Positions 11,290 through 53,014 are shown, counted from the first letter of the stretch. The stretch is 64,000 bases of DNA from Candidatus Syntropharchaeum caldarium (GCA_001766815.1 LYOS01000002.1:39777-103776), one strand, 5' to 3'. Notes: generated by a model not told the origin, from the sequence alone. Translations and numbers: made by a program.

Positions 11290-11408
11290 AGAGCAGAATT
11301 CAAGCCAACCTGATCTGCACCATTGATCACGGTGCAAATCCGCCGATCGGGATAGATTTTATAATACAGCCCGATCAAGTGTTAATGAAAAAGGTGATTT
11401 GATCGAGT

Positions 11409-13613: not shown

Positions 13614-13658
13614 TTAAATATTTATATCATTAGATTAAACATTAGACGAGGGATACTG

Positions 13659-14033: not shown

Positions 14034-14403
14034 TCCAGCAACATCAAGGATCAAATCTGATACGAGGGGAAGAAGGTTTGAGTTTAGAATTATATCATGT
14101 GAGGACCTTCTGGTAAGGGTCATACGGGCTGAAACCTGTCAGATTGAGATTCCTGAACTTGGTGTTGTGATAGAACCTGGTAACGCCTCTGAAGGATTTA
14201 TCACAAATGTTGAGGGGGTGCTTTTGCGCATCGAGAAGGTTCTTGGTATGACGAAGAACTGGGCGATCAGAGACGGTGATAAAGATAAAATAGAACAGAT
14301 TGAAGAACTCTCTAACCGAATTGATGCGGTGAAAAATGGAGAATTTGCGATAACACTTATTCTGGAGGATGAAACAGGAAACTCGGCAATTCTCGGAGAG
14401 TAA
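13993..14403 (+). CDS. ZPR1-type beta-barrel domain protein lacking the N-terminal zinc ribbon (possible truncated COG1779 protein)
   Basis: EDLLVRVIRAETCQIEIPELGVVIEPG...GFITNVEGVLLRI and the terminal ILEDETGNSAIL match ZPR1-domain signatures (IPELdlei, TvEGlL, DDPlgNS). No CxxC pairs are present. The 5' 41 nt overlap sepF. Confidence 0.4.
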   Translation: MSGLIGRNLSESTDPATSRIKSDTRGRRFEFRIISCEDLLVRVIRAETCQIEIPELGVVIEPGNASEGFITNVEGVLLRIEKVLGMTKNWAIRDGDKDKIEQIEELSNRIDAVKNGEFAITLILEDETGNSAILGE

Positions 14404-14406
14404 TAT

Positions 14407-34443: not shown

Positions 34444-34646
34444 GCCTGCATCACGTCTACTCTTTCATTTCCATCTATTTATATGAACCTTTCTATTTTT
34501 CAACTTCCCCCCTTCTTACCAGAACCCCACAGCAAAAACTGCTACGATCCAGGCAGAGCCTCCAAACCCTGGCGTTCTCTGCTGCTATAACTCATGAGAA
34601 CATCGAGATTAAAATAAAATTAAAAAAGAAGGGATTGACCCTTCAC

Positions 34647-35381
34647 TTATGGGTAGGTATAACTTTCCACATAGGCGTTTTCGTAGCCAGACTCTGTCAC
34701 GTTGTCACCGAGTGCCTGGAAGTTATCGACTGTCCACTCGCCATCCTCATCCTCTTCGGCATCGAAATCAAGGACAACATTCTTCGTCCATGAGATGTTG
34801 ACACCAACGCGGGTATGACATCCAATGCATGCCTCGTTCGAGTCGATCATAAGGTCATCATCGATCGCCTGCTGGATGAATGCGTTGTGTGCGGCCTTCG
34901 TCCCATTTCTGCCACCGGCATCATAGGAGTACTGGTAAGGATCGTTTGTCTCATCGCCGTTGTAATCACCAACACCATCTGGCTGATCGAATCCACCCGC
35001 GTGTGGGTAACCACCGAGCCCATCATTTCCATACTCATGGCAGATCATACATGCGATCGTCTCTGCTGCGTGCGAGGTCGTACCTGGGGTTGAACCTGAG
35101 GTATCACCTGATGCAACACCTGTTGGCTTCTGCACCTGTGAGGAGTTCACCCTGTGACAGTCACACCCAGGGGATGCAAGGCCTTTGTGCACACCATTAT
35201 CAGAATCGATCATCTCTGCGTTGATATCGCCATGACACTTCACACAGGGTAGCTGGTTTCCATCATCACTCAGGTTATACCAGCTGTGCTGTCCACTGAA
35301 GAGTGCTGCTGTCTGTGGGAGTGCGAATATTCCGATTGCTACGATTGCAACCAGTAGCAGTCCAGTTGTATTCCTTCTCAT
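34647..35381 (-). CDS. secreted multiheme c-type cytochrome (3 canonical CxxCH + one CxCH site)
   Basis: Signal peptide. CVKCH, CMICH, CIGCH, plus an atypical GCDCH. N-terminal 45 aa nearly identical to the 42871 cytochrome (IGIFALPQ[TS][AV][12 protein letters not shown]). Confidence 0.85.
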   Translation of the reverse strand: MRRNTTGLLLVAIVAIGIFALPQTAALFSGQHSWYNLSDDGNQLPCVKCHGDINAEMIDSDNGVHKGLASPGCDCHRVNSSQVQKPTGVASGDTSGSTPGTTSHAAETIACMICHEYGNDGLGGYPHAGGFDQPDGVGDYNGDETNDPYQYSYDAGGRNGTKAAHNAFIQQAIDDDLMIDSNEACIGCHTRVGVNISWTKNVVLDFDAEEDEDGEWTVDNFQALGDNVTESGYENAYVESYTYP

Positions 35382-35671
35382 CTATCTCACCTCCTTCTCA
35401 GTTGTTCAGATTTTGATTTCTGGGTTTCTCTCGTCTCCAGATTTTTTAGTTTTGAAAGAGGTGGTACGAGATTTTAAATTTTATCGCATCTCTTCCTCTT
35501 ACCTCTACGTCTATCTACTCGCGTATAGTTTATAAAAGAGATGGGTGTGATCATTTAGAAAAAAAGTTAATATTAATGATTAATACTCACTTTTGACCGA
35601 TTTTAATAAATATAACATAGTTATTTCATAATTGTAATAAAAAATCCCTAAGAGATAGTCCGGGACGAAAG

Positions 35672-36160
<489 letters not shown>

Positions 36161-36166
36161 TTAAAA

Positions 36167-37075
36167 CTATACTGTCTCAGATGAGAAATAGATCGTATCA
36201 CCTGTTTTCAGATCATTGAGAAGTTCACGGTTTTCTGTCACTGTGCCCACGATGTTACTTGCTTTGAAGTTCTCGCCTGTTGGCCCATATTTTTCACTTG
36301 GTTTGAGTCGTATGCCTATCGTCCCCGCACCTTCTTTTGCCATATTTGTCACACCAATTGTAAAGCTCTCCATCACATCAGGGGTATTCTCTGGCATTAT
36401 ACTCCGCTTATATCCTGCTCGTTCATCGAAGAGAACGAACGCACGGTATTTCTTCTTGACGCTCAGTTTTCCAACACCAGCCCTCATAAAGGTTGCATAT
36501 CTGAAGTAGTGAAGTGTCTGGTCTATATTTTCACATAGTTTTATCCTGAGGATCTTATCTGATGATATGCCGTATGTCCTGACCTCTCCTGTTTTAAGAA
36601 TGGATATCGTATAGACTGGGTTCTGTTCTACAATGATTGCGTCGTCCTCGATCGCGCCCTCCCGGATTTGATGGATTCCACGCGCACTGAGCATCCTGTA
36701 TGCCTCCTCCTGTTGCATTCCGATCGCCATTATTCGTGGTGGTTCAACAGAAAGCATAACCTCATCGGATGCCTTCAGCCCTTCCAGAACCTCTGTATTC
36801 TCCAGTATGCCCACAACATCGTGCGATCTTGAGGGTAAAACATTGCGTCGATAGATGTAAACATTACCAATGCCATTTCCCGTGTTTCTCACTGTTACAG
36901 TGTTACTTGAACGAAAACCTGTGGGATCGTCACCATTTCCATAGAAATCAGCCGACCCCACGATCTTTACGTACGTATCGTTAATCTCTTCTACCTTCAA
37001 AGTTCGATCTGCTACGACGTAGATATAGTCGCTTGCCTCATTCTCACTGATGACCTTCAATCGTATTTCTTTCAT
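36167..37075 (-). CDS. conserved hypothetical protein in the A2-like ATPase operon (possible methanogenesis-marker-type protein)
   Basis: 302 aa, soluble. 4-nt overlap with the upstream gene. No motif I can assign confidently. Confidence 0.45.
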   Translation of the reverse strand: MKEIRLKVISENEASDYIYVVADRTLKVEEINDTYVKIVGSADFYGNGDDPTGFRSSNTVTVRNTGNGIGNVYIYRRNVLPSRSHDVVGILENTEVLEGLKASDEVMLSVEPPRIMAIGMQQEEAYRMLSARGIHQIREGAIEDDAIIVEQNPVYTISILKTGEVRTYGISSDKILRIKLCENIDQTLHYFRYATFMRAGVGKLSVKKKYRAFVLFDERAGYKRSIMPENTPDVMESFTIGVTNMAKEGAGTIGIRLKPSEKYGPTGENFKASNIVGTVTENRELLNDLKTGDTIYFSSETV

Positions 37076-37617
37076 GTCTGCAGGCTCTGGAAGACCTGAT
37101 CAAGTCTTTGTGTACTCAGGACTTCCTCTGATGCTACCACCAGAAGTGCGTTCTTCTCTTTCTTTACATTCCATATCCTGAACCCCTCTGGCGCCAGTAA
37201 TTCAAGGAAGGTGATGATATCGTCGAGAAATTCTTCAGACGGCTCAAATATGACAGATTGCATGAAATCCTCCTCTATCTCGGTCTTTACCAAAATTTCA
37301 AGTCTATTTGGCTGTTCCACCATACTGCGTCCAAAGGCATCCCAGAGGTATCGAAGCAACGTTGGCGCGTATGTTTCATCCTTTATGCGAAATATCGTCT
37401 CTCCATCTTCACTTTCGCTCTCCGCTATATTTGCTATTGTAACAAATGATCCACGAGCTTCTTTATAGGCAAGACGAGCCGCAAAGACTCCTTCTTCGGG
37501 ATCAATCTCCATCTCTATCTTATCTATTTCTACTGGAAAGTCATGTGCTCTGATCTCTGCAACTCTGCGATAGGCATCAGCCCCCTTTGCATCCTGGGAT
37601 CTTACAATAATATCCAT
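37072..37617 (-). CDS. conserved hypothetical protein in the A2-like ATPase operon
   Basis: 181 aa, acidic, soluble. Immediately downstream of the tandem ABC ATPase. Confidence 0.45.
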   Translation of the reverse strand: MDIIVRSQDAKGADAYRRVAEIRAHDFPVEIDKIEMEIDPEEGVFAARLAYKEARGSFVTIANIAESESEDGETIFRIKDETYAPTLLRYLWDAFGRSMVEQPNRLEILVKTEIEEDFMQSVIFEPSEEFLDDIITFLELLAPEGFRIWNVKKEKNALLVVASEEVLSTQRLDQVFQSLQT

Positions 37618-37620
37618 CTT

Positions 37621-39207
37621 TCAGATAATGCCACTTTTCAGTGCGTATTCGATGCCTGTGTCAGTATCTCCGGTGAAGATCGCCTTGCCCTTATCCATTA
37701 CCGTAACCCTGTCACACACGAGCCGTACAAACTCAAGGTCATGGCTCACGATAAGAAACGTGGTCTTATGTTCGTTGCGACGGTTAATAATAGAGTTGGT
37801 TATCTGGTACATTGTCATCTCATCCAGTGTGCCTGTTGGTTCATCCAGTATCATTATCTTGGGGTCCTTGAGGATAATCGATGCAAATATTATCCGATGC
37901 TTCTCTCCCTCGCTAAGCTCATCGGGATATCGTTTCAAAATTCCCTCAATTCGTTCTTCACTAAACCCAACAAGCTCAAGGACGTCATAAATTTTCTCCT
38001 CTAAGATCTCTTCCGGCACTCCTGGTACAAATCCCTGCATATTTCTGTAAACTGTCTGGTATGCGGATAGCCCATATTCCTGGTGAAGTATGGCGATCTT
38101 TTCTTTGACACGCCCCCTTTGTATGCCACGTTCACGCATATCCACACGTTCACCATCCAGTCGAACTGTGCAGACACCTTCAAATTCGGAACTGTCACCA
38201 TTGATAATTGTAACAAGTGTTGTCTTACCTGCACCGCTATGTCCCAGAATCCCGTGTATCTCGCCTTCATAAATATCGAGCGATACGCCATCCAGTGCTT
38301 TTATAACACCCTCATCCACCGTGAAGTATTCCCTGCGAAGATCTCTGCACTGAATTATTGGTTCACCTTCAAAGTTAACAACCTGTTTCTTCGACAGACG
38401 TCGTTCAGCGATGAAACGTTCCATTACCTTGCTTGTCTCTCCCTCAAAGACTGCCTTTCCTTCTATAAGCAATATCGATCGCGGGGCCACCTCAGGTATA
38501 TACGATGTCAGATGTGACGCGATGAACGTTGTTCGCTCTTTCGAGATCTCTTTTATCACATCATACATCTCTTCTGATGATTTGGGGTCAAGCGTTCCCG
38601 TAGGCTCATCAAGCAGAAGCACCATCGGATCTTTTGCGATCTGTCTTGCCATCACGACTCTTTGCTTCTCACCGCCGCTCAGGTCCCGTGCAATATGTTT
38701 GATCCTGTGTTCAAGTGAGACGATCTTCACGATCTCATGTGCCCGTTCCATACGTGCATCGATCGGATAATCAGAGCTATGCAGAGCTGCAAGCACATTC
38801 TCGATAACAGACCGCATCGAATAAATCCCGGTGGCTTCCTGAAACATGATCGCAACCCGCCGTTTTATCACATCGCGCATACCTTTATCAATCTCCCAGA
38901 AGTCAACCCGCTGGAGTTCCATCGCCGAACCACAGCGCGGGCATTCTGTGCGTGATGGAGTATCAACCCGCTCGCAATTCTCACAAAAGCGAATGTTGTA
39001 GTATATATGCCCGGCTGTTGGTCTATATTCCTCCATGCCGCGCAATGTGTACATTAGTGCGCTTTTTCCAGCTCCACTTGCTCCAATAACACCGATTATA
39101 TCGTTTTCTTCCACGCTCAGGTTTATATTATCGAGTATCTTGTTGCCTCCCTTTTCGATGGAAAGATTTTCTATCTCTATAATCTTCATAGACCCACTCC
39201 GTTGCAA
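37621..39207 (-). CDS. soluble tandem-ABC ATPase with zinc-ribbon insertion, methyl-coenzyme M reductase component A2 (AtwA)-like
   Basis: Two complete ABC domains (GASGAGKS/LSGGEKQRV/LLLDEPTGTLD and GHSGAGKTT/LSEGEKHRI/ILDEPTGTLD). A CENCERV...CPRCG insert in domain 1. No TM domain. Confidence 0.65.
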   Translation of the reverse strand: MQRSGSMKIIEIENLSIEKGGNKILDNINLSVEENDIIGVIGASGAGKSALMYTLRGMEEYRPTAGHIYYNIRFCENCERVDTPSRTECPRCGSAMELQRVDFWEIDKGMRDVIKRRVAIMFQEATGIYSMRSVIENVLAALHSSDYPIDARMERAHEIVKIVSLEHRIKHIARDLSGGEKQRVVMARQIAKDPMVLLLDEPTGTLDPKSSEEMYDVIKEISKERTTFIASHLTSYIPEVAPRSILLIEGKAVFEGETSKVMERFIAERRLSKKQVVNFEGEPIIQCRDLRREYFTVDEGVIKALDGVSLDIYEGEIHGILGHSGAGKTTLVTIINGDSSEFEGVCTVRLDGERVDMRERGIQRGRVKEKIAILHQEYGLSAYQTVYRNMQGFVPGVPEEILEEKIYDVLELVGFSEERIEGILKRYPDELSEGEKHRIIFASIILKDPKIMILDEPTGTLDEMTMYQITNSIINRRNEHKTTFLIVSHDLEFVRLVCDRVTVMDKGKAIFTGDTDTGIEYALKSGII

Positions 39208-39224
39208 ACTTAAATCAAGGCTTA

Positions 39225-40004
39225 TTAATTCTTTTCTGTTTTTGCAGACAATGGCATGAGCGTAGAGGTTCTGTAATATAGATCATTTATACGCGCATAT
39301 TTTGCACCCCAGAACTCAACCACCTCTTCAACCGTGCCTGCTGTACCTGTGGCAGTATAGGTAACCTCCATCCCCTCCTCAATCTCTGGTGCTGTTTCGA
39401 TGGCTTTCTCTTCGCCAGACTCGACAAAGACGATTCGTTTTATTTCCTCAGTACTTCGCAGTGGAGTGATATGCCCCCTGATGACACCTGTGATAATACC
39501 AACAACCCTACCTTTTGTGAGTCTCTTCTCTGGTAGGGGGCGAACATACTTGGTATCAACCCCCTCACGTGCCAGATCCTCGTAATCGATTGGACACTGG
39601 CATATCACGATCGATGGCTTATCGAAGAGTTTGAGAAAGTAGATTTGCTTATAAATTATATGTCGTGCGACATTGCCGTGGTGAAATATGAGTAGTTTTG
39701 AACGTTCGATCCGTTCGCGCTCATCCTCTTCCAGTTTGAATTCAACCTTCACAAAATGCTGTTCCGCCTTGATACCTTTTCCCTTACGAAGGACAAGCAC
39801 CGATGCTTTGATCCCATACGCACGCAACCGCTGTGTTATATCACAGACTGGATATGGGATGTGTCGATCCGAAAAGTCCATCGCGATTATCAGTGCATCC
39901 TCGCCATACTCATCCGAGTGCGTGCCTCCACGCGCTATACCGTAACCAAGCCCCCCTCCAAACTTTGCCCTACAGTTGACATAGTGGGCCTTTCTGCCTA
40001 TCAT
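39225..40004 (-). CDS. conserved hypothetical protein in the A2-like ATPase operon
   Basis: 259 aa, soluble, Gly-rich N-terminus (GGGLGYGIARGG). Confidence 0.45.
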   Translation of the reverse strand: MIGRKAHYVNCRAKFGGGLGYGIARGGTHSDEYGEDALIIAMDFSDRHIPYPVCDITQRLRAYGIKASVLVLRKGKGIKAEQHFVKVEFKLEEDERERIERSKLLIFHHGNVARHIIYKQIYFLKLFDKPSIVICQCPIDYEDLAREGVDTKYVRPLPEKRLTKGRVVGIITGVIRGHITPLRSTEEIKRIVFVESGEEKAIETAPEIEEGMEVTYTATGTAGTVEEVVEFWGAKYARINDLYYRTSTLMPLSAKTEKN

Positions 40005-40018
40005 AAATCACACCTTTC

Positions 40019-40879
40019 TTATACAGATGGAACACTCAGCGGAAGTTCAATGATTATATCGTCCTGTGTGCCCCTCTTTATGCTGCCAAACTCACCGAGT
40101 TTACCAAAGTAAAATTCCATCTCTCCGAGTTTCTCTGCATATTCATCATAGGATGCGTTCACTCTGAGACCGCTCATTTTGAGTACCACGTTCACACCAA
40201 ACTTTGATTCAATCTCGGTTTTTATATAGGGATAGGTTGCAGGAACATCAGGTCGAAGGCTTCCGATGATCGAGATTACACTCTCCATAAATGCACCTAT
40301 TATCCGTTTATCATCAGGATCATCGAACATCGTTGGTATCCTTGTAATAGACGGGATGAAAATCAGCTCATCATCAGACTCAAGATCTGCATAGCCTGTC
40401 ACGATCACAGGTACATTAAGCCTTCTGCAGAGTTCCATCTTCTCACGGATACAGTGCTCAAAACATCCAAACATGAAGATCGCCAGATCGTGCTCCTCGA
40501 TCATCATCCGCTCTTCCCTCATCAGAATCGCCTTTCTGCCAACGCCTCTTGCAGGTGCGATTGTGTTCACCTTTGCGCCAGCCTGCCGCAGTGTCTCAAC
40601 CGTGCTGCAGTGTGGAAAGGGTGTGTGATGAAGATTAAATGAGGGGATGATCACCGCAACTTCGATACCATAGAGCGGTACAGTGATAACCCTTCCTGAA
40701 TGCTTACGGAGAGCTGCCCGTTTACGCAGAATGTTCACCGATTCATGATCTATCATCACATCAAATTCTGCAACACCACCCATCTGGTCTATGTTCAGGA
40801 CAAAACCGCCAAGATCCTCTATGAACTCAATTATTTCGTCTGATTCAAACGCATTTCCGATATATTTTAGCGGCATCAT
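40019..40879 (-). CDS. conserved hypothetical protein in the A2-like ATPase operon (Mmp7-sized, unverified)
   Basis: 286 aa, soluble, directly downstream of the second tandem-ABC ATPase. Confidence 0.45.
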   Translation of the reverse strand: MMPLKYIGNAFESDEIIEFIEDLGGFVLNIDQMGGVAEFDVMIDHESVNILRKRAALRKHSGRVITVPLYGIEVAVIIPSFNLHHTPFPHCSTVETLRQAGAKVNTIAPARGVGRKAILMREERMMIEEHDLAIFMFGCFEHCIREKMELCRRLNVPVIVTGYADLESDDELIFIPSITRIPTMFDDPDDKRIIGAFMESVISIIGSLRPDVPATYPYIKTEIESKFGVNVVLKMSGLRVNASYDEYAEKLGEMEFYFGKLGEFGSIKRGTQDDIIIELPLSVPSV

Positions 40880-40897
40880 TTTTATTCCACGCCGTAT

Positions 40898-42679
40898 TCA
40901 GCTCAGATGGAAATACCTGTATGCATCTCCCGTATCCTCAATCTCACCGCCTTTTGAGACAAAGTCGGCGTACTTTCGATTGACAAATTCATTACAGATA
41001 GTCTCAGGATCGCCTGTCATCAGAATTTCGCCACGGTGTATCAGCAGTGCCCGGTGTGCAAGCTCCTTCACCGCATCCAGTTGATGGCTCACGAGGATTA
41101 TTGTGAGGTTGTGCTCCTTGTTGAGGGTTTTTATTGCATTTATACATTTACGCAGCGAGATAGGATCGAGATCTCCGAAAGGCTCATCGAGCAAGAGGAC
41201 CTCTGGCTTCTCCGTCATGTGAAGAGCAAGCGCAACCCGTATCTGCTCACCTGCACTGAGTTCATATGTATAGTGATCCATGAGAGAAAGAGGAAGATCG
41301 AGCGCTTCAAATATGGGTTTCATCCGCTTTTTAGCTTCGTCTGCAGGTATCGTTGGGAATAACTTCCTCAGAATCCCTGGATCAAGTTTCAGCTCCCTGA
41401 GCATGTCTTTCATCTCATCTTCTGGCAGATCTGCAAGTCTATAAAGTACATCCAGCTTCACGTCACTTAGTCCCATTTCTCTCGCCCGTTCGACCACCTC
41501 AGGCAGGAATCGCACGTCCTTTAGCCCAAGTTTCTGCTCAAAGAGGTGCAGCACGATTTCATAGTGCGTGAGCGCAAACTCCTGATGTAACGTTGAGATG
41601 TTAAGACGCGCCTTTACAGCATCATAACCATAGGTACAGATATTTGTCCAGCGCTCTTCACCACCATCGTTGATCCTGTAGGTAACCTCACCAAACTGAG
41701 GAGGTTCAAGTCCTGCAAGCAACCTGATCAGTACTGTCTTTCCAGCAGCACATGGTCCAACGAGTGCAAGTATCTCGCCTTCGTAGATATCGAAGTTGAG
41801 ATTTTTCATCTGGATCGTCTCGATAAACTTTGCACCTGATGTGGTTATCTGGTAACGCTTCCAGAGGTTGGTGAGGCGCATCTTCGGCACTTCTCGTGGT
41901 ATCGATGGCTCAACGGGTTGATCGATCTTTGCAACAAACTTTTTAATGATCTCATCTGGTTTCCCCTCATCAACCACCTTTCCTTCCTCAATCCAGAGCA
42001 CCCTATCAGCGAGAGTTTCGTGTATTTCTGGCATATGAGAGACAAATACAACAGTAACACCAGCATTCTCATTTATTTTTTTTATCGCATCAAGCATCAT
42101 CCCTCGACCAACAGGATCTATCATGGTGGCTGGTTCATCTACAAGAAGAACACGTGGATTTGCTGCGAGCTGTCTCGCAAGCAGAACACACTGCTTCTCA
42201 CCGCCGCTGAGGATATTGTAGTAGTAATACTTCTTATCCAACATGCCAACAATATCAAGAATCTCGGAGGCCCGTTTGAAGAGTCGTTTATAGTCGTTTG
42301 AACCTGTTGTAGGTATCTCTTCAAAACCTGTCTCAAGCTTTCCCAGTTTTCGCATCACATTATTTATCACACTCTCAGGCCATAGTGCAAACGAACGTTG
42401 CAGATGCAGTGCGGTTATCTTCTGGAGTTCAAGCTGTTCATTGGAATTAGAGTCAGGTGTGAGTGTGATACCATCAACCCTTACAGATCCTTCTTTAAAT
42501 GATTCCACGCCCCTTAAAATTCGCAAGAGTGTGGTTTTTCCTGCACTGCTCCTTCCTAATATACCCAGAACTTCACCCTCATCGACTGAGAACGAGACGT
42601 TCTCAAGAGCAGTGTGTTCTTTCTCAATCTTTGAGATCTGATAAGTCTTCGTTAAATTTTCTACTTCGATGATCTTCAT
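40898..42679 (-). CDS. soluble tandem-ABC ATPase, divergent paralogue of the A2-like protein (no zinc ribbon)
   Basis: GRSSAGKTT/LSGGEKQCV/LLVDEPATMID and GPCAAGKTVL/LSAGEQIRV/LLLDEPFGDLD. No Fe-S N-domain, so not ABCE1. No TM domain. Confidence 0.65.
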   Translation of the reverse strand: MKIIEVENLTKTYQISKIEKEHTALENVSFSVDEGEVLGILGRSSAGKTTLLRILRGVESFKEGSVRVDGITLTPDSNSNEQLELQKITALHLQRSFALWPESVINNVMRKLGKLETGFEEIPTTGSNDYKRLFKRASEILDIVGMLDKKYYYYNILSGGEKQCVLLARQLAANPRVLLVDEPATMIDPVGRGMMLDAIKKINENAGVTVVFVSHMPEIHETLADRVLWIEEGKVVDEGKPDEIIKKFVAKIDQPVEPSIPREVPKMRLTNLWKRYQITTSGAKFIETIQMKNLNFDIYEGEILALVGPCAAGKTVLIRLLAGLEPPQFGEVTYRINDGGEERWTNICTYGYDAVKARLNISTLHQEFALTHYEIVLHLFEQKLGLKDVRFLPEVVERAREMGLSDVKLDVLYRLADLPEDEMKDMLRELKLDPGILRKLFPTIPADEAKKRMKPIFEALDLPLSLMDHYTYELSAGEQIRVALALHMTEKPEVLLLDEPFGDLDPISLRKCINAIKTLNKEHNLTIILVSHQLDAVKELAHRALLIHRGEILMTGDPETICNEFVNRKYADFVSKGGEIEDTGDAYRYFHLS

Positions 42680-42807
42680 GTTAAAACCTCCTTAGAATCC
42701 TCAGAATCATCATAATCTTAACCTGTTCATCATATATAAGAAGATCTATTTTTGGATTGAGGAGGGTTAATCATTTAATTTTTCTAAAGAGCTGTCATGT
42801 CCACAAC

Positions 42808-42816
42808 CTTTATATC
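42808..42816 (+). promoter_or_regulatory. candidate archaeal TATA box for the cytochrome operon
   Basis: ctttatatc about 55 nt upstream of the 42871 ATG, preceded by a purine-rich BRE-like stretch. Sequence inspection only. Confidence 0.25.
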
Positions 42817-42870
42817 TCGCACATGCGATAAGTTAATGTAAGGTAAAGAGTCAGAAATGATCAGCGAAAG

Positions 42871-43566
42871 ATGAAAAAACACACACCGCTTCTGCTCATG
42901 ATCGCCGTACTTGCGATCGGTATATTCGCACTCCCCCAGAGCGTTGCGCTTTTCTCAGGTCAGCATTCATGGTATAATCTCACTCCACAGGGTAACGATG
43001 TACCCTGTGAAAAATGTCATGGCGACATCGCTTCAGAGATTGCATCAAGTGGTGCACACAAAAATATCGAGTGCGGCGGATGTCACAGAGCAGATGCAAG
43101 GGTTGGCTATGCCGGGGACTGGGAGGGGGATGTGGATCCAGGACAGGGTGCACACGCGGCATCGACTATTGAGTGTATGATCTGCCATGACAGGGGCACA
43201 AACTTCACACACTCCAATATCGGAAGTGATGAGTGTTCTGACTGTCACACCTCGCCTTTTGTGGCGCCTGGGGCAGGAGGCTTCAATCTGACTGATCCTT
43301 CTGTCTTGCCGTCTGATACCGGCACAAAAGCCGCACACATGCAGTTTGTCCATGACGCGATCAACGAGACGCTCATGGAGGGTGCAAACGAAGCCTGTAT
43401 AGCATGTCATACGCATGTGGGTGTCAACATCACATGGACGAAGAACGTGGTGCTCAACTTTGAAGCATCAGAGAATGAGACTGGAAGCTGGTCGATCCCT
43501 GAGTTTTCAGCAACAGGGGATAATGTGACAGAATCAAACTATACAAACACCTGGGTAAATACTTAA
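42871..43566 (+). CDS. secreted pentaheme c-type cytochrome
   Basis: Signal peptide plus five CxxCH motifs (CEKCH, CGGCH, CMICH, CSDCH, CIACH). 14 nt upstream of the giant cytochrome gene. Confidence 0.85.
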
Positions 43567-43579
43567 AAGGGGGGTTAAA

Positions 43580-46500
43580 ATGAATGAAGGAATGAAAAAG
43601 GTCAAAATCTTTATTCTCGTATTGCTTATGATCGCATCACCGTTTTCGATGCTTACTGCAGGTGCTGCTATCGATGGCTCAAAGCATGACTTCACGTTTG
43701 AGAGTGAACTTACGCCAAATGGTGCGTGTTCCGCCTGCCATGAGTGGCGTACCATGACGTGGGCACGAAACCTGAGTGAAGAGGAGGCTTATTTTAACCA
43801 GACAGAAGATCCAAACTACGTCCATGATCCTACCATAAAATGCTATGACTGTCACAGTGGCACTGCGGCAGACAATGATCCCAGTTACACGCTTTTTATC
43901 AATACAACACTTGGCAGATATATCCCGCAGGACGTTGCCTTTGATGCCAATATGAAGGGAAACGATCTATCCTATGACAGCTCACCCTCTGATGATGAGA
44001 CCGGATACTACGAGTCATCGACATCAGGCCACTACATAAAGACGAACGCAACAGGCCTGACGAATATTGAACCTGGTGATAAGCTCCCATGCACCGACTG
44101 TCATGAACCACACGAGACAGAACCCACAAATGAGGTCTTCATAAAAGGAAGCTCCGAATATCCACTTGGTGGAAAGGTTGTATCAAACTTAAAAGCAAGC
44201 ACAAACACCCGATCTGGTACTGGCACTGGACGTGAGATCTGTGCGGTATGTCATGGATACAGCGATTCAGGCATAGCTGTCAGGTTTGTTGATGTTAATC
44301 CCCTCTATGGCTCGACCGATAGGATCGTTCAGACCCCGTCAACGGTATCCCAGCATGCAGAGAATGATTCAACACCATGCACAGACTGCCACTCACATAG
44401 CACCCCGGCATCGTATTTTGTCGGAATCAGCAGCCACAACACCCACTTAACCGCCGAGTTTGGACCCAAAATATCCTCGTGCACAGGTGCCGATGGCTGT
44501 CACAGTGAGGGAAACTTCAGCCGCTTCAACGACAACCTCACACTCTCAGCGACTCATGCCTGCGATAACTGCCACAGCCCGAATGGAACATACAATGGTG
44601 TCACCCTTGCCAAGGCAAGCTGGGAAGAAGGCGTCTACAACGGCACAGACTTAAAATCAAGCAAGGAGAAGTGGTGTGCAAGCTGTCATGATAAAGAACC
44701 TGCCAGCTCTATGGGGAATGGAAGCGGTATAAACGCCCCGAATATCGTCGGGATGAATCTAAGCGGTAGCTGGCAGAGCCCCGTCGCTATTATAACAAAT
44801 CAGACGGAAAACGTCAGTGATGCAACAAACCTGCTGGATGGTGACGTTGAGACCGGTGCGAGTGTGAGTGGGGCATCCCAGATCGTCTTTGATCTTGGAG
44901 AGAGTACAGAAGTCTCCCATATCAGGCTTTACACATCTGCCAGTTCCACGGTCAAGTGGGAGGTGTACGGGAGCAATGATCTTTCAAACTGGACGAGAAT
45001 ACTCTATGGTCAGGATGTGATCTTTTCCGCTCCTGCATGGCTTACAGGTGAAGATGAGGGATGGGATGAGAGCAGGGTTGACAGGATCATACCTGTGAGA
45101 TACATCAAGCTCTACAAGAGGAGTCCGTGGCCCGTGGGGAGTGGTTCTCAGCGTGAGTTTGAGTATAAAGCAGATATACGGTATGGATACTATACCACCG
45201 GTCACAAGATTGCCTGCACCAACTGCCACAATAGAAGTAGCGCGCATATCGATGGAACCTCACAGACCTACAACACAACCCTTGATAACTATCAGACAGG
45301 TTTCAGGCTGAAATATCTTGAGGTTGAGAATGAAACCGTCCCCTCACTTGAGATACCAAGAGTCGACTGTAACTGGGGTGATTATCCAAAAACCTCAAAC
45401 GACTTTGCACTCTGTTTCTCATGCCACAACAAGTATAACCTCCTCGGGGATGCGAGTGGTACAGGCGACTACCATAAGGATCCACCCCAGACAAACTTCA
45501 GGAACAACACCACAAACGCCCACCTCATCCATCTGCAGGGAAGGGGATACTGTGGAAACAATCCTGACTGGGACTCAGACTGGAACGGCACAGCAGACTC
45601 ACCACAGAGTTGCACCGCGTGTCACAATGTTCATGGCTCTCCTGCTCCTGCGATGACAAGACACGGAGAACTTGTGAGTATCAACGATACCCTTGAGAAG
45701 GCTCCCCTCCTGAACCTGAAGTACATAAACGCAGACGGAGAGCTTGATCATAATCTCTCAGATGCCACCCAGAGTATCGGCGGAAGGACACAGTTCTATG
45801 GTGCAGGACCCGGAAACGTTGCGAAGAATAAGGTGTGTAACATGTGCCACAATGATCAGATTACCTATTATCGCACACCAGTACCTCCCACCGTAACCTG
45901 TGGTAATGGATCAGGAACAGGAGGCTGCCACAGCCCCACCGCATACTCTTCCTCTGCAGCAGGCAGCCACAATACTCATCTAACCGCACCCAGGGGACCA
46001 AACATAACATCCTGCACAGGTGCTGATGGCTGCCACAAAGGCAACCACACCGGTCTCTTCAACGATGGTTTACCGCTATCAACAACCCACAGATGTGATA
46101 ACTGCCACAGCCCGAACGGGACATACGATGGTGTGAATGACTCCACAATCGGAGCAAAACCCAACTGGGAAAATGGAGTGTACAACAATTCCACGACATT
46201 AAAGTCAGGCAAAGAGAAGTGGTGTGCAGGATGCCATGATGACGAACCGGCGTATAGTAAGGCAGAGTACAGCGAGGTCATCGTGGATAACACCGAAGCT
46301 TCTTTTGCTGGTTCATGGAGTACATCCTCTCACTCAACCGATTATGGAAGCAACTACAGATACAATGGTGCAGGTTCAGGCACTGAAACAGCAACGTGGA
46401 CACCTAACCTGCCAGAATCTGGTAATTACTCGGTCTATGCATGGTGGCCCATATATGTTTCAGGAAGAGCAACGAATGCACCGTACACCGTGTACTACAG

Positions 46501-49500
46501 CAGCGGGTCTGAGACGGTAAGGGTGAACCATAAAGCAGGAGGGGGTGGCTGGAACTACATCGGCACATGGAACTTCTCTGCTGGAACATCAGGTTACGTT
46601 GTGCTCAGTGATGATGCCGATGGAATTGTAATGGCTGATGCCATCAGATTTGTTAAAGGCGGGAATGCCACGTACGCACCCAATATCATCGGTGATAATA
46701 CAAGCTATGGGTTCTATGCAACAGGTCATGGTCGAAGCGGTGTTGTGGATTGCCTGTCCTGTCATGATTCAGATAAAACCCATATCGATGGAATTCAGCG
46801 AACGTATGAAGCAAATGAGACAACAGGTGATGCGATCACACCCTACAATAACAGCTACCGTTTAAAGGATCTTGATGGGTTGCCAGCGATGGTAATGCCA
46901 AGAAAAACAACATCCACATTTAATATGCAGGCCTACTGGCGGGATTTTAACCTCTGTTTTGACTGTCACAACAGGTTTGAGGTGCTGGGTGAAACATCAT
47001 CGGATATCAGTAACACCAACTTCTGGAATAATGATTCAAGTATCTCAAACTCACACTGGCTCCATCTCGGGATAGATAGCAAGCACTTTGACTCTGATTA
47101 TGACAGTTCTGCAGACTCACGTGAGAGCTGCATCGCATGCCACAACGTACACGGTTCGCCAACAGGACCGATGATAAGACATGGAGAACTTATAAGCTAT
47201 CCAAGTACAGCGAACAAGGAGCCTGCGCATAATTTCTACTATCTTCTCCCTGGAGATGGTTCAGCCACTGCCAGGTTTACACCCACACTTGCAGGCGGAA
47301 CATATGATATCTATGCATGGTGGAGCTCGCACTCAAACCGTGCGACAAATGCAAAGTATATAATATACCATGATGGTGGTAGCGCTGAGGTAATCGTCAA
47401 TCAGGAGGAGAACGGCTCACAGTGGAACCTCCTTGGCGAGTACAATATTACAACTTCAAACGGCACGGTCGTTCTGACATCAGATGGCGCCAACGAGTAC
47501 ATCATGGCAGACGGAATCCAGTGGAACAGAACAGATGGCGGAGATACTGTCTATGTTGATGAACCTGATGCCACCTATACTGGAAGCTGGACTGTGGAGA
47601 CCTCAAACCCAGACAAATATTACGGAGATAGCACGAGATACTACTATGCACCCATCAGGAATGCGACTGCAAACGTGAATAAGAGTACTGGCGGCACCTT
47701 CTATGTAAGCGGTGTAATCACTGCAAATCATCTCTGTCAGATGTGTCATAGCAACGTCCAGTACAACAGAGACCCGTATACCGGACCAAGAGTTCCATAC
47801 AGTGATGCAACCCCTGATAACATCTCAAACTTTGAGAGTAACACTGTAACATTCACGGCTTTCGTTACCGATGTGGATGAGAACATAGCAAATGTTACCA
47901 TCGATCTCTCAAGTTTTGGTGGTAACGTTAGCCAGAGGATGTACGATGACGGAACCCACGGTGATACCAAGGCAAATGATGGTGTGTATAGCTACCAGTT
48001 CACAGTGCCTGCAGGTGTTGATGATGGTCCAAGGAGTATCACAGTCACCGCAACAGACGATGATGGTAATAGCGGTGAAGGTCTGATCGATCTTACCGTC
48101 TATCAGCCAGGCGCACTGATCATCGATGATGAAGATGCAAGCTTCACCGGAACATGGGGAGAATCCACGGCAGACGAGACGACGTATGGAACAGGATACC
48201 GCTGGCATGCTTCAGGCACCGGGAGCAATACAGCAACGTGGAGTGTCAACATCACAACCGCCGGTAACTACACCGTCTACGCACGATGGGTTACAGGAAG
48301 CAACCGTGCTACAGATGCACCCTACACGATTAACTATGAAGGAGGCAACGAAACAGTAAGGGTTTCACAGCGGATAAAAGGAGGAAAGTGGAACCGTCTT
48401 GGCAACTACTACTTTGACGTCGGCGAGTACTCGGTCGTTCTCACAGATGATGCTGATAACTACGTTATAGCTGATGCGATAAAGCTTGAATCTGAAGCCC
48501 CTCCAGCTTACCACCCATGGCCAATCGCCGACAATCCCGATGCTGAATACAACGGAACAGGATGGTATACTGGAACAGCCGATAGCGGTTATTATGGCTC
48601 AGACTTCTACTACCATGCCTCAGGCACAGGAGAAAATACCGCAACATGGACACTCGCAGTTCCAGAAGCTGGAAAGTACGATGTGTACGCATGGTGGGCA
48701 GACGGCTCAAACCGTGCAACCAATGCACCCTATATGATTAACTACGAAGGAGGCAGTGAAACAGTAAGGGTTTCACAGAAAATAAATGGAGGAAAGTGGA
48801 ACCTGCTTGGGACATATTCATTCAATGCAGGTAACTATTCAATAGTACTCAGTGACGATGCAGATGGATTCATCATTGCCGATGCAGTGAAGTTTGAGCT
48901 TAACCAATCTGTATGGCTCACCCCTTCCTCAATCCAGTGCACAAACCTCACCAACGCTTCACTCCTGATCGATAACAGCACATCAACTGCCAACGCGCTT
49001 GATACCGGAGATGAACAGTATGTGGTCTTTGATCTTGGTGCAAGATACACCGTTCCATCGATCAAGATGTACACTGATGGTAGCGGCAACTACACATGGG
49101 ATGTCTATATGGGGGATAACATATCTGATCCTGCCTGTTGCAACCATTCAAGCTGGGGCACGCCTGTCCTTGAGAACTGGACTCCCTCTACTTCGGGGTG
49201 GAACGAGGTCAACCTGACAACACCCGCCACAGCGAGATACATAAAGCTCATGCGAAACGATACAGGTGATGATCTTGCCGCAGACAGCCTCTATGAGTTC
49301 ATGTTCGACCCACCAACGGCAACGCTCACCTTTGAACTCCACTCATACGCTGATATGCATATCTATGACCCGGAGGATCGCCATCTCGGGATGAACTACA
49401 CGACAGGCGAGATCGAGAACCAAATTCCCGGAGCAGTATATGACTTCGGTGATGTCCAGACTGCTACCCTGCCAAAGCTTGCAGTGGGGGAGTACAGGGT

Positions 49501-50482
49501 GATACTCAAAGGAACGGGGACAGGTGGATATGAACTGACCGTCACGGGCGAGGATGATGATGGTGTACTCACCAGTGAGACCGTTGCTGGAAATATCACA
49601 GCAGGTGAGATCCATGATGCAACCGCAGCGGTTAACACCACAGACATCACAAACATCACGATAGCACTCGAAGATGAGCCAGAGCCAACGATCAATGCAG
49701 ACGGAGTTGATAATGTCACACTCGCTGATCTCTATCCTGATATCGATGAGGTTGATATCGACCCCCTCGATCCTGAGACGATCGATACCACAGGGATGCC
49801 AGATATTGCCATTCACACCGCCTACATGGTCAACGCCTCAGGAGATGGTGAGTACACACTGAGGTTTGAGGATGTGGAGAACGCTGAGCTTATCACTGCA
49901 GTCTATAAGATCAATGAAGAGGGTGAATGGATCGAGCTTCCAGCAGTGATCAATGGATCGAGAGTTGAGGTTACGATGGAAGCAGGTGATCCACCGGTTA
50001 TTTTTGCATATCCAGCACCAGAAACACCGACTACAGATGACACAAACACCGCATCAACAGGTGGTAGTGGTGGTGGGGGCGGCGGAGGTGCAGGCCCGAA
50101 GGACTCAGATGGTGATGGTGTACCCGATCGTCAGGAGCAGCTTGATGGGACAGATCCTCTCAACCCTGATACAGATCATGATGGACTGAACGACTTTGAG
50201 GAGCGTGTGGCAGGAACAGACCCGAACAATCCTGATACCGATGGTGACGGAATAATCGATGGTGAAGATCCGGATCCAGCGATTATGAACTTCACACAGA
50301 AGGTGAAGAAGACCTTCTCTGATATTTCAGATACCATCTTTAGATCGGGTTCAGAGAATGCGCCGGTACCATCTTCAGAGAGCGGTGCAGAAGAGAAGAC
50401 GCCAGGGTTTGGAAGCTTTGCCTGGATCGTAGCAGTTCTTGCTATGGGGTATCTGGTAAGAAGGGAAAAAGTTGAAAAATAG
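43580..50482 (+). CDS. giant (2300 aa) cell-surface multiheme c-type cytochrome with PGF-CTERM anchor
   Basis: Signal peptide. At least 17 canonical CxxCH motifs plus CX5CH/CX8CH variants. Internal duplication of a heme-rich module. Two discoidin-like domains, five or more roughly 100-aa beta-sandwich repeats (…SNRATNAPY…), an Ig/CARDB-like domain, a poly-Gly linker, TSP3-type DxDxDG repeats, and a C-terminal [23 protein letters not shown] signal. Confidence 0.9.
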
Positions 50483-50503: not shown

Positions 50504-51814
50504 TTAAAATATCTGCTGTGGAGGAGTGTTAGCTCCTCCCGGTGTTGTATTCTCAAAGATTGCAAAGTCGTTGCTATCAACGTCTGTATCCATGCCATCG
50601 GGGTATCTGCCTGCAGACGCACCATCTTCTGGTGCCTCAGCATTGTCTGAAACGTCGCCATCATCGAAGTCACCGTATGTAACTCTATCGATCACATTCC
50701 CGCCATTTTTCAGGATGATGGTATCTCCGCCATTGTTGAGTCCGAACGAGAAATCAGTGGACTTGTTCAGCAGCAAGAACCCATTTGCAGGTATTGTTTT
50801 TCCGTTTAGACTTGCAGGTGAAGCAGTGTTATCCTCGATCGTCCAGTCATCAAGCGAAATATCCTCGTCCATCAGGTTGTAGAGTTCGATCCATTCTGAA
50901 TCACCTGGTAAAGGATCTGAAAGAAACTCATTCACAACAACCTTCGGGACAGCATCACCCGCTTCGATCGTAAATGTCCCATCAACCACCCTATGTGTGA
51001 TCTCATCCACACCGTCTGTGAGTGATATAACCGTAAGATCGAGTGGGCTTGTGTCACCAATAGCCCCAACTGCTTCAAAGGTAATCTGAGCAAAGACCAC
51101 ATCGCCTGTAAGGCTCGTTGGGAAGTTGAGGGCTGTGTACTGGATAGATCCAGCGCTGTTGTTGATATCTCTATATAGCGGGAAGTTGAACTCGCCATCG
51201 GCAACATCAAGCACCTGCACGACATCTGGGTCGAAGTTCAGGATGATGTTTGCTCCCAGTCCCTGGTAGAGGTTCTCGATCATGATCGGAACTGTGGTAG
51301 TCTCACCTGCTTCACAGCTTAGATTCTCTATCGATACGATCGTATCAAGCACGGTAAATGTCCCGTCAACCACTGTATGCGTGATCTCATCCATGCCGTC
51401 TGTGAGTGATGTAACCGTAAGATCGAGCGGGCTTGTGTCACCACCCTCACCAACTGCCTCAAAAGTTACCTCTGCAAAGACCACATCGCCTGTAAGGCTC
51501 GTTGGGAAGTTGAATGCCGCGTACTGCACATATCCTGCCTCATTATCGATCTGGCTATAAACCGGGAAGTTGAAATCACTTCCATCTATATCAAGCACCT
51601 GCACGACATCTGGGTCGAAGTTCAGGATGATATTTGCTCCCAGTCCGCCATCAAGATTCTTGATTATGATTGGAACGGTCACACTCTCGCCTTTGCCAGC
51701 AGCCACATCCTCGATCGAGATGACCGTCTCTTCGTTTGCAGCTGCTGTAATTACAAGAGCTGATGCTACAATGAGTATGGCAACCACAGATGCAGCCAGT
51801 TTATGCCTCATCAT
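50504..51814 (-). CDS. secreted protein with two tandem cohesin domains and a C-terminal lamin-tail domain (LTD)
   Basis: Signal peptide. Two roughly 135-aa repeats of cohesin type (…GESVTVPIIIKNLDGGLGANIILNFDPDVVQVLD…FAEVTFEAVGEGGDTSPLDLTV…). C-terminal LTD (EFLSDPLPGDSEWIELYNLMDEDISLDDWTIED…). Confidence 0.65.
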   Translation of the reverse strand: MMRHKLAASVVAILIVASALVITAAANEETVISIEDVAAGKGESVTVPIIIKNLDGGLGANIILNFDPDVVQVLDIDGSDFNFPVYSQIDNEAGYVQYAAFNFPTSLTGDVVFAEVTFEAVGEGGDTSPLDLTVTSLTDGMDEITHTVVDGTFTVLDTIVSIENLSCEAGETTTVPIMIENLYQGLGANIILNFDPDVVQVLDVADGEFNFPLYRDINNSAGSIQYTALNFPTSLTGDVVFAQITFEAVGAIGDTSPLDLTVISLTDGVDEITHRVVDGTFTIEAGDAVPKVVVNEFLSDPLPGDSEWIELYNLMDEDISLDDWTIEDNTASPASLNGKTIPANGFLLLNKSTDFSFGLNNGGDTIILKNGGNVIDRVTYGDFDDGDVSDNAEAPEDGASAGRYPDGMDTDVDSNDFAIFENTTPGGANTPPQQIF

Positions 51815-51825
51815 GGTAAACCACC

Positions 51826-52737
51826 TCAGCGAAGCAGTTCATAGCCAGCAATCCCGTTAATATGTGATGCCAGATAGACCGCATCGAGCAGGTTGACAAC
51901 ACCGCTGCCATCAACGTCTGCAATTCTCTCGTTCAGGTCATATCCAGGGACCCCGAGTGCATAGCATCCAAGATACACAACGTCATCCTCATCCACATCA
52001 CCATCATCATCGACATCGCCGTTCTTTTTCACAGTGAGCTCAACACTGACCGATGTCTCTGAGAGACCGGGTGCATTTGTTGCGTTGACTGGCAGGAGAT
52101 ACGTACCTGGTGTGGTTCCATCACTTGCATTTGTTACAATTGTGTAAACACCTCCGCCAGTATCAGTCATCACTGCTTCACTATCTCCACCTATCTGAGA
52201 TAGATCGATCGTAACCGAATCGATAGCGCAGATATCGGTGACAGTAACAGATAGCTCTGCTTCTTCTCCCCAGAGAGGGGTATCATCCGTATCGTCAGGG
52301 ATTATCGCAGGATTTGCAGATGGATCTGTCACAAGTGGTGGTGCAACTCCGGTCAGATCAACTTTTCTCGGTGGCTGCATGCGCCCCCATTCTGCAGTCT
52401 CCTGTGCAGTCATCACCCTTCCATCAGGTAGCGTTATCACGAATGTAATTATCTTTCCACGATCATATAGCGTGCCTGTAACCGCCAGATAATTGAGATT
52501 GTTTCCATATTCTCCTTCAATACCTACTGTTGTAGTTCCTCTGAGTTCACCATCGATATACGCCTCTATGATTGTATCTGTGGGCGCGTCAACACCGTTA
52601 ACGCTCACATTTCCCCAGAATTTATTTGGTAGTGCTGGAGGAGGGGAAACCGCTGTTGCTGCTATCACACCAAGCAATAAGAGCAGGCTAATAATAAGAA
52701 TGCCTCCAGTTACCTTTTTCGTTACTTCTTTTTGCAT
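51826..52737 (-). CDS. secreted protein with N-terminal beta-domain, Ig/CARDB-like domain and C-terminal type-I-like dockerin
   Basis: Signal peptide from the internal Met (MQKEVTKKVTGGILIISLLLLLG); the track's 52797 start adds a non-signal extension. The dockerin duplicated F-hand is KNGDVDDDGDVDEDDVVYLGCYALG / ADVDGSGVVNLLDAVYLASHING. Confidence 0.65.
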   Translation of the reverse strand: MQKEVTKKVTGGILIISLLLLLGVIAATAVSPPPALPNKFWGNVSVNGVDAPTDTIIEAYIDGELRGTTTVGIEGEYGNNLNYLAVTGTLYDRGKIITFVITLPDGRVMTAQETAEWGRMQPPRKVDLTGVAPPLVTDPSANPAIIPDDTDDTPLWGEEAELSVTVTDICAIDSVTIDLSQIGGDSEAVMTDTGGGVYTIVTNASDGTTPGTYLLPVNATNAPGLSETSVSVELTVKKNGDVDDDGDVDEDDVVYLGCYALGVPGYDLNERIADVDGSGVVNLLDAVYLASHINGIAGYELLR

Positions 52738-53014
52738 ACACATGCCTCCATTCCTCGTGGTGGCCAACCTACATCTCTTCAAAAGCAGTCGCATCAAAAT
52801 GACAAAATGCCATAATTATTTGACATTTCTTGTACTGTTGGACTGCTATATGACCACCAGAAGCGCATCATCGTTTATACTATTTAAAACTATCGATCTC
52901 AAATATCGTTGTTCTGATGTGAATTTGACAGATGAATAAAAATACAAAAAGAACAAATAAGTCAATCATGGAAGTAATGATAAATTTAAATTGATAAGAC
53001 CCTGAACTGGATTA

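Follow-up and report, generated by a model that had tools for sequence, protein, structure and literature searches.

The open reading frame (ORF) at positions 43580–50482 (+) of a 64,000-nucleotide (nt) stretch of archaeal DNA (Candidatus Syntropharchaeum caldarium, here Ca. S. caldarius; GCA_001766815.1, LYOS01000002.1:39777-103776; referred to as the window) runs intact from its ATG to its stop codon and encodes a protein of 2300 amino acids (aa), in line with the single long ORF called in a first-pass annotation made from the sequence alone. The evidence supports a secreted, sequon-rich and C-terminally anchored giant multiheme cytochrome (MHC) of an alkane-oxidising archaeon. Since the public record to which the ORF is an exact match (OFV67993.1) is labelled "Fibronectin type III domain protein", this cytochrome is easily missed in cytochrome surveys. 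The thermosome and atwA of the window likewise match Ca. S. caldarius records exactly, so that a Ca. Ethanoperedens host, suggested by the best match of the ORF (95%, the GB50 protein), was rejected. Most likely, OFV67993 is a tethered electron relay that binds the matrix or a partner. More specifically, we favour, with moderate confidence, a cell-surface electron relay of the butane oxidiser Ca. S. caldarius that works with the adjacent AvECN-type cytochrome, and that is probably part of the wiring passing electrons to a sulfate-reducing partner. This host takes the place of the ANME-2 (anaerobic methanotrophic archaea, ANME) or iron-reducing setting to which the first-pass annotation had pointed.

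OFV67993 contains exactly 17 CxxCH heme-binding motifs (mean of 0.02 in residue shuffles), in agreement with the at least 17 counted before, and three expanded motifs, i.e., two CX5CH (CTGADGCH at residues 301 and 812) and one CX8CH (at residue 774). In an alignment of the first 400 residues with homologues from archaea and bacteria (alignment A1), C301, C307 and H308 of CTGADGCH were invariant, and other members carried an ordinary CxxCH at that place; the CX5CH form itself was found in five lineages, with variable inner residues. The CX8CH motif at 774 aligned with CxxCH or CX4CH sites of homologues. Since all three expanded motifs align with canonical sites in homologues, the protein likely holds about 20 heme sites, for whose bis-histidine ligation 40 histidines would be required vs. 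the 50 present in the heme region. All hemes fall within residues 50–1390 (the last being heme 20, at C1386), and the Pfam families matched in this region were Cytochrome_C7, Cytochrom_c3_2 and Paired_CXXCH_1.

The heme region is arranged as five tetraheme units in the order OmcE-like, A-type, OmcE-like, A-type and OmcE-like (U1 to U5; these and the other features of OFV67993 all lie on the + strand). U1 (43667–44269; hemes at C50, C88, C171 and C221, with eight histidines) owes its assignment to a match between profile A1 and PDB entry 7TFS (E 1.2e-7, about 170 columns, profile positions 30–201), which is the OmcE tetraheme nanowire of Geobacter sulfurreducens (PMC12954529). This alignment takes in three CxxCH motifs together with the flanking motifs (S/T)KHD(F/L)S and DNDP/HNDP, and the fourth heme (C221) lies just beyond its span. 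U2 (44270–44770; C267, the CX5CH at 301, C328 and C366) is of the A-type, overlaps the Cytochrome_C7 match (residues 318–378) and holds the invariant C301, C307 and H308. U3 (45137–45889; C546, C612, C678 and C753) again appears to be OmcE-like, as profile–profile comparison (hhalign) of U1 (residues 29–224) with the profile of this "B+t" module (residues 520–770) indicated homology (95.8% probability, E 8e-9). U4 (45890–46270; the CX8CH at 774, the CX5CH at 812, C839 and C882) is a second A-type unit and a duplicate of U2 (57–60% identity in self-comparison). Finally, U5 is a third OmcE-like unit that is split in two, with its first three hemes (C1058, C1126 and C1184) in U5a (46661–47230, delimited by self-comparison and alignment) and its fourth (C1386, CQMCH) in U5b (47690–47794). 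When the domain inserted between both parts (residues 1225–1365) was spliced out, residues 1030–1402 aligned with residues 525–772, with C1386 opposite C753.

Since direct comparison of the B-module with OmcE was weak (40% probability), U3 and U5 are connected to OmcE transitively, with U1 as the intermediate. Searched against PDB, the B-profile yielded a marginal match to 9yuq alone (E 0.0076), and the A-type units yielded no significant solved relative (c7-like and MtrC matches at E>0.5). The internal duplication of a heme module, as described in the first-pass annotation, was recovered for both of its matched pairs (residues 270–400 vs. 783–915 at 57–60% identity, and 532–716 vs. 1040–1222 at 32–56%), but its extent had to be revised: because the fourth heme motif (753 and 1386) belongs to the repeat, the complete repeated unit is longer and spans residues of about 270–770 vs. 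about 771–1400.

Intercalated between and following these units are a number of heme-free modules, including several of lectin-type families. Golvesin_C (Pfam PF25275) was matched in four stretches at 419.5 bits (vs. a gathering threshold of 31.6), the first located between U4 and U5 (46271–46660; PDB 6f2p, E 3e-24), the second in a loop inside U5 (47231–47689, including a 50-aa N-terminal-like fragment; from Pfam and alignment), and the third and fourth in tandem further downstream (48110–48904; from Pfam and self-comparison). The beta-sandwich repeat of roughly 100 aa noticed earlier is thus real and corresponds to Golvesin_C, although it occurs as four full copies plus the 50-aa fragment rather than as five or more copies. 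The second copy is devoid of the N-terminal strands, and precisely these strands are resembled by the 50-aa fragment behind it; together (residues 1218–1370), they may represent a tandem copy in decay or an arrangement within U5 that resembles a circular permutation. Two discoidin/CBM32-like domains, as previously proposed, were retrieved as well, i.e., one between U2 and U3 (44771–45136, residues 398–514; Pfam F5_F8_type_C_2, with weak PDB matches to the CBM32 entries 4a42 and 2jd9) and one behind the fourth Golvesin_C copy (48905–49264, residues 1779–1893; Pfam and self-comparison). The latter contains nine sequons and is the densest stretch in this respect. The family score of the discoidin domains was marginal (PF22633, 30.5 bits over two stretches vs. 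a threshold of 27.8), and comparison of the two copies with one another gave E values of 5.5e-9 and 3.7e-8.

Between the last heme and the C-terminal anchor-like tail lie about 900 heme-free residues. From C1386 onwards, these comprise an immunoglobulin (Ig)-like, choice-of-anchor-X-like beta-sandwich (47795–48109; NCBIfam NF041940 at 37 bits around residue 1453, with weak Big_13 and Big_9 matches), the tandem Golvesin_C pair, the second CBM32-like domain, two tandem beta-sandwich "stalk" domains (49265–50059), a Thr/Gly-rich linker (50060–50125), TSP3-type calcium-binding repeats (50126–50305) and the tail. An AlphaFold2 (AF2) model of the stalk (residues 1902–2167) was all-beta with a mean predicted local distance difference test score (pLDDT) of 68, and a Foldseek search of PDB with this model returned generic two-domain Ig/adhesin stalk matches only (none at E<1e-3), with no family assignment or link to surface-layer (S-layer) proteins. 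The TSP3 assignment made earlier was corroborated (PF18884; two repeats, 39 bits vs. a cut-off of 25), whereas the supposed Gly9 run in the linker turned out to be a G7 run.

With regard to export and surface attachment, residues 1–29 (43580–43666) read as a Sec-type signal peptide that is presumably cleaved, and the dozens of N-x-S/T sequons seen earlier were counted at 68, vs. 29.8 ± 4.7 in shuffled sequences. The extreme C-terminus (50396–50479) shows the tripartite arrangement of a PGF-CTERM-like sorting signal, i.e., TPGF, 16 hydrophobic residues and the basic cluster RREKVEK, and this arrangement is kept in a shorter variant of the protein (loci L002 and L003); the tails of other relatives (L005–L007) are plain transmembrane (TM) helices without PGF. 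No archaeosortase was found among the window ORFs scanned; in a different organism (Ca. Ethanoperedens E50), two expressed Exosortase_EpsH genes are annotated, one of them beside an archaetidylserine decarboxylase gene. The proposed "S-layer-style" nature of the protein did not hold up, as neither Pfam (at E<=0.1) nor NCBIfam (at E<=0.01) revealed an S-layer family in OFV67993 and the C-terminal model resembled generic Ig-like adhesin stalks only. Because no S-layer domain was detected, this label is limited to the anchor and the glycosylation sequons.

Directly upstream of the giant gene (its downstream neighbour being OFV67994.1), the gene recorded as OFV67992.1 (42871–43566, +; exact record match) encodes a 231-aa secreted pentaheme cytochrome with five CxxCH motifs. 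A phmmer comparison with PDB entry 8E5G, the extracellular cytochrome nanowire AvECN of Archaeoglobus veneficus, aligned residues 8–231 with residues 8–242 at E 2e-37, including the motifs CEKCH, CGGCH, CMICH and CIACH, so that OFV67992 is a full-length AvECN homologue by sequence and a candidate nanowire subunit. A TATA-like box (TTTATATC; 42809–42816, +), about 55 nt upstream of this small gene, is a putative promoter element, and the 13-nt intergenic spacer (AAGGGGGGTTAAA; 43567–43579, +) contains a purine-rich ribosome-binding site. From this 13-nt spacing on the same strand, OFV67992 and OFV67993 are inferred to be co-transcribed as an operon. U1 resembled OFV67992 at the heme motifs only, with no global homology.

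The pairing of both genes extends beyond the window, as AvECN-like genes also flank the giant cytochrome in L002, L003, L005, L006, L007 and L008, and were encountered in every archaeal locus with room for them except the rearranged Ethanoperedens copies. They were absent from about 70 bacterial loci that carry the heme module. The AvECN-like family as a whole counts more than 400 cluster representatives, mostly from ANME-1, Syntrophoarchaeum and other Halobacteriota, and probably corresponds to the small MHC group of ANME, Syntrophoarchaeum and Archaeoglobales that is reported to be widely distributed and very highly transcribed (PMC9012536). The prediction that the solved AvECN gene of A. 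veneficus would likewise adjoin a giant cytochrome failed: in this genome (CP002588.1, 65805–86593; L087), a paralogue of 272 aa and an unannotated gene of 196 aa come after the AvECN gene, and no large cytochrome is present within 10 kb.

A second AvECN-like small cytochrome (244 aa) is encoded in the window at 34647–35381 (–). It has three CxxCH motifs and, in place of the CGxCH of AvECN and the paralogue, a GCDCH (CxCH) that may be interpreted as a variant or as a decayed heme site.

Relatives of the giant protein itself are numerous. The family defined by the U1+U2 module comprised 1172 representatives (clustered at 50% identity) at E<=1e-3 and 267 at E<=1e-30, most of them from uncultured bacteria. 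A bacterial cytochrome encoded by a Thermodesulfobacteriota metagenome-assembled genome (MAG) and carrying 32 CxxCH motifs (P0029) has an A-type unit followed directly by Golvesin_C, at 47% identity to residues 797–956; because the same junction is kept, the heme–lectin fusion is common to different domains of life. Much closer is the 1707-aa short variant (L002 and L003), which matches the window at 96–99% over 42797–46134 and 48914–50468 but differs in the middle. In L003 (a contig of Syntrophoarchaeum sp. 12019_3), the cassette 42797–50468 resides in another genomic context with different flanking genes, the homology starting 12 nt before the TATA-like box and stopping 14 nt before the stop codon. 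Because the homology is bounded in this way while the flanks differ, the promoter and two-gene unit appears to behave as a movable cassette. Simpler relatives (L005 and L006) occur without Golvesin_C, yet retain the C-terminal discoidin module, the hemes and the anchor.

The closest long relatives were found in Ca. Ethanoperedens thermophilum (L001, i.e., E50, at 10060–15332, and L004, i.e., E37), of which the DNA is 95% identical to 43636–48904 of the window over 5.3 kb. These copies have another signal peptide, DDE-transposase fragments upstream, no AvECN-like neighbour and no anchor: owing to a 1-nt difference followed by unrelated sequence, the E37 and E50 proteins end one residue past the fourth Golvesin_C domain. 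While the window species is placed in the class Ca. Syntropharchaeia (NCBI taxonomy), Ethanoperedens belongs to the order Methanosarcinales, in a different class, and both hosts originate from the Guaymas Basin and have Ca. Desulfofervidus auxilii as partner. Judging from taxonomy and identity rather than from phylogeny, the giant-cytochrome gene was likely transferred horizontally between Syntrophoarchaeum and Ethanoperedens in recent times.

Based on this architecture, the favoured model runs as follows. OFV67993 would be exported by Sec, receive its hemes from Ccm and become N-glycosylated, after which its tail would be lipid- or TM-anchored. The glycosylated stalk could then hold the N-terminal heme head at or past the S-layer, where the head would take electrons from the small, abundant AvECN-type cytochromes or filaments and hand them to cytochromes or pili of Ca. 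D. auxilii, with the lectin modules fixing it in the exopolysaccharide matrix or on the partner surface. As these modules are inserted in loops or linkers, the chain of hemes would run on unbroken past them. The partner is the one with which Ca. S. caldarius (about 2% of cells) aggregates in the thermophilic Butane50 culture from the Guaymas Basin (PMC11543930). In favour of the model, the Ethanoperedens orthologue FHEFKHOI_00149 is transcribed at 250–273 reads per kilobase per million (RPKM) in the Ethane50 culture (PMC7175092, Table S3). The nanowire-like conduit envisaged in the first-pass annotation is retained in part, given the OmcE-homologous units and the upstream AvECN-homologue gene; since about 900 heme-free residues separate the hemes from the anchor, however, OFV67993 is not a self-sufficient conduit from the membrane to the outside.

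A number of observations weigh against this model. Although the tail has the PGF/hydrophobic/basic make-up of the PGF-CTERM anchor assigned earlier, it scored below both curated cut-offs (PF18204, 17.1 bits vs. 18.8 over model positions 1–22 of 23; TIGR04126, 12.5 vs. 24.5). Modelling of single modules, proposed as a check, worked for the stalk only; for the heme domain at the N-terminus, AF2 (9 sequences in alignment A1) gave an unusable model with a pLDDT of 33, so that continuity of the heme chain is argued from the logic of domain insertion only. Likewise, sugar binding by the lectin modules is predicted from their family membership only. Because the E37 and E50 copies lack both the anchor and the AvECN neighbour and are nevertheless transcribed, neither is essential to the heme/lectin part. 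Finally, Ca. S. caldarius is a minor member of Butane50 and its role there has been called unclear (PMC11543930).

Among the alternatives, OFV67993 might constitute the base, cap or adaptor of an AvECN-type filament, attached to the cell or located at the tip, in which the OmcE-like N-terminal unit docks on the filament end and couples the filament electrically and mechanically to cell or partner. The factors that anchor, initiate or terminate cytochrome filaments are considered unknown in the nanowire field, and an OmcE-like "stopper" is expected (bioRxiv 10.1101/2025.10.22.684050). This expectation, the close association of the gene with that of an AvECN homologue in six archaeal lineages, and the distal position of the heme head relative to an anchor at the opposite end would all fit such a role. 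Nevertheless, we consider it unlikely, given that the units of the giant protein are of the OmcE-type and share no global homology with the small cytochrome, that the A. veneficus AvECN gene adjoins a paralogue rather than a giant cytochrome, that the E37 and E50 copies have neither anchor nor AvECN neighbour, and that AvECN-like genes far outnumber giant-cytochrome genes. An extended version, to which we attach a similarly low probability, holds that OFV67993 is a lipid-anchored, lectin-bearing "plug" forming the base or partner-contacting tip of an AvECN-type nanowire, and that the cassette was recently exchanged between unrelated alkane oxidisers because it is matched to the partner they share, Ca. 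D. auxilii. The exchange in this version is deduced from the Syntrophoarchaeum and Ethanoperedens copies, which share 95% of their nucleotides and come from different classes.

Alternatively, OFV67993 could be a terminal extracellular reductase of Fe(III)/Mn(IV) minerals, sulfur species or humics, in analogy with large cytochromes in Geoglobus, Ferroglobus and Methanoperedens. Hundreds of bacterial and archaeal proteins from sediment and groundwater (including those of Geobacteraceae and Nitrospirota MAGs) do contain related heme modules, and large MHCs are described in iron-reducing archaea (PMC9012536). This role is quite improbable, however, as obligate syntrophy with a sulfate reducer is the only lifestyle known for the host and for the Ethanoperedens recipient, and the lectin modules point to glycans instead of minerals. 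It also seems very unlikely that OFV67993 is mainly an adhesin or aggregation factor with hemes that are secondary or redox-sensing. The seven lectin or Ig-type modules, the adhesin-like fold of the stalk, the TSP3 calcium repeats and the neighbouring cohesin and dockerin surface proteins would suit such a function, but the nanowire-type units carry twenty heme sites, which come at a cost and are conserved in different lineages, and L005 and L006 drop Golvesin_C while retaining the C-terminal discoidin module together with the hemes and the anchor.

Last, the possibility that the ORF is a chimera of two strain variants (i.e., the long anchorless type joined to the C-terminus of the short anchored type), suggested by the stop of E37/E50-type homology at 48904, the restart of L002/L003-type homology at 48914, and the end of an independent Logan contig at 48943, can be dismissed as highly improbable, since that same contig (from SRR3669912) is 100% identical to window 34539–48943 and thus spans the 48904/48914 junction, no repeat is common to both sides of the junction, and three homologues run collinearly across it, i.e., P0003 and P0004 (46–48% identity) and L007 ("Archaeoglobus sp. 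JdFR-22"; 77% identity over 45962–50025, with four Golvesin domains and a C-terminal TM helix). The contig ends about 30 nt (about k-1 bases) past the point where the short-variant sequence converges, as would result from a de Bruijn graph branch if a second allele were present in the sample. The assembly chimera that the first-pass annotation had named as its own refutation was therefore not borne out.

The further surroundings of the cytochrome cassette are diverse. Divergently oriented from it, a methanogenesis-marker cluster (36167–42679, –) encodes Mmp3, DUF2113, two atwA-like ABC ATPases and two MCR_C-like proteins. On its other side, a secreted protein that has a lamin-tail domain besides two cohesin domains (50504–51814, –) adjoins a dockerin protein (51826–52797, –), of which an Ig-like domain resembles residues 1406–1510 of the giant cytochrome; this cohesin/dockerin pair suggests a surface-protein cluster convergent with the cytochrome operon. 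No CcmF2 was seen among the neighbours within about 7 kb, i.e., the atwA/MCR_C genes, the AvECN-like gene, and the cohesin and dockerin proteins. More remotely, the window encodes a large Chlor_Arch_YYY/DUF2298 membrane protein (3912–5948, +; 552 bits) that may relate to surface glycosylation, and a secreted 413-aa protein (10048–11289, +) that combines beta-rich repeat segments and a Thr-rich linker with a TM helix at its C-terminus, for which no family match was obtained and which may be an envelope protein. An N-terminal CPHC thioredoxin-like domain is fused to a multi-pass membrane domain at 28531–29577 (+); this protein was considered as a thioredoxin-CcdA/DsbD-type fusion for cytochrome maturation, but gave a weak thioredoxin match only and was set aside.

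Arguments on how electrons pass from alkane- and methane-oxidising archaea to their sulfate-reducing partners are still drawn from gene lists. The locus described here joins, in a single operon-like unit, an AvECN-type nanowire subunit and a giant anchored cytochrome with OmcE-type units, which until now have been studied separately, and its lectin modules may account for the placement of the wiring within the intercellular matrix. OFV67993 is thereby a testable candidate for the element by which archaeal cytochrome filaments are anchored or make contact and, if such a role is true, would address a question that the nanowire field calls open, although a general rule of this kind is disfavoured by the finding in A. 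veneficus and by the anchorless copies of Ethanoperedens. In addition, the near-identical, anchorless and transposase-flanked copy in an ethane oxidiser of another class with the same partner suggests that wiring modules may move horizontally between syntrophs.

Among known systems, the large MHCs of ANME (Chadwick et al. 2022, PMC9012536) are comparable in being giant, secreted cytochromes with more than 10 hemes in syntrophic alkane or methane oxidisers, for which extracellular or interspecies electron transfer has been proposed, and of which many have a C-terminal anchor and some putative sugar-binding domains. In contrast, the lectin modules of OFV67993 are CBM32-like and Golvesin_C, and its hemes are located far from the anchor. 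With regard to the types distinguished among these MHCs, OFV67993 shares with types A and B the presence of more than 10 heme-binding motifs (17 CxxCH and three expanded) and of a C-terminal TM helix (a hydrophobic stretch followed by RREKVEK), but neither Pfam nor NCBIfam revealed their S-layer (DUF1608-type) domain with a heme motif in the linker. The peptidase-M6-like heme-free N-terminus and adjacent CcmF2 of type B are likewise missing, the N-terminus being an OmcE-like unit, and Pfam gave no match to the pectin-lyase-type N-terminal domain of type C, a type devoid of an anchor whereas OFV67993 has an anchor-like tail. Because no S-layer domain was found, OFV67993 falls outside types A, B and C; that survey did not specifically consider the GoM-Arc1 clades and found a maximum of 10 heme motifs in ANME-1.

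At the level of individual parts, U1 (and transitively U3 and U5) shares with OmcE (7TFS) the order of heme sites and the flanking motifs, with three CxxCH in the aligned span. However, OmcE is a protein of about 230 aa that polymerises non-covalently, whereas OFV67993 fuses three such units, alternating with units of another type and interrupted by domain insertions. OFV67992 aligns over its full length with AvECN (8E5G; the "MmcX" family) and keeps all four AvECN heme motifs, but has a fifth CxxCH (CSDCH at residue 122). Similar to ArtA/PGF-CTERM substrates such as the Haloferax volcanii S-layer glycoprotein, the C-terminus of OFV67993 combines a Ser/Glu-rich linker, PGF, a hydrophobic helix, a basic tail and dense sequons, yet differs from them in its hidden Markov model scores below the cut-offs and in having no S-layer fold. 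The four repeats of about 130 aa are clear homologues (E 3e-24, 419 bits) of the C-terminal module of Paenibacillus xanthan lyase (6f2p) and of Golvesin_C, but this module is grafted into a cytochrome in OFV67993, in one case even within a heme unit. Overall, OFV67993 belongs with the known giant extracellular cytochromes of syntrophic archaea.

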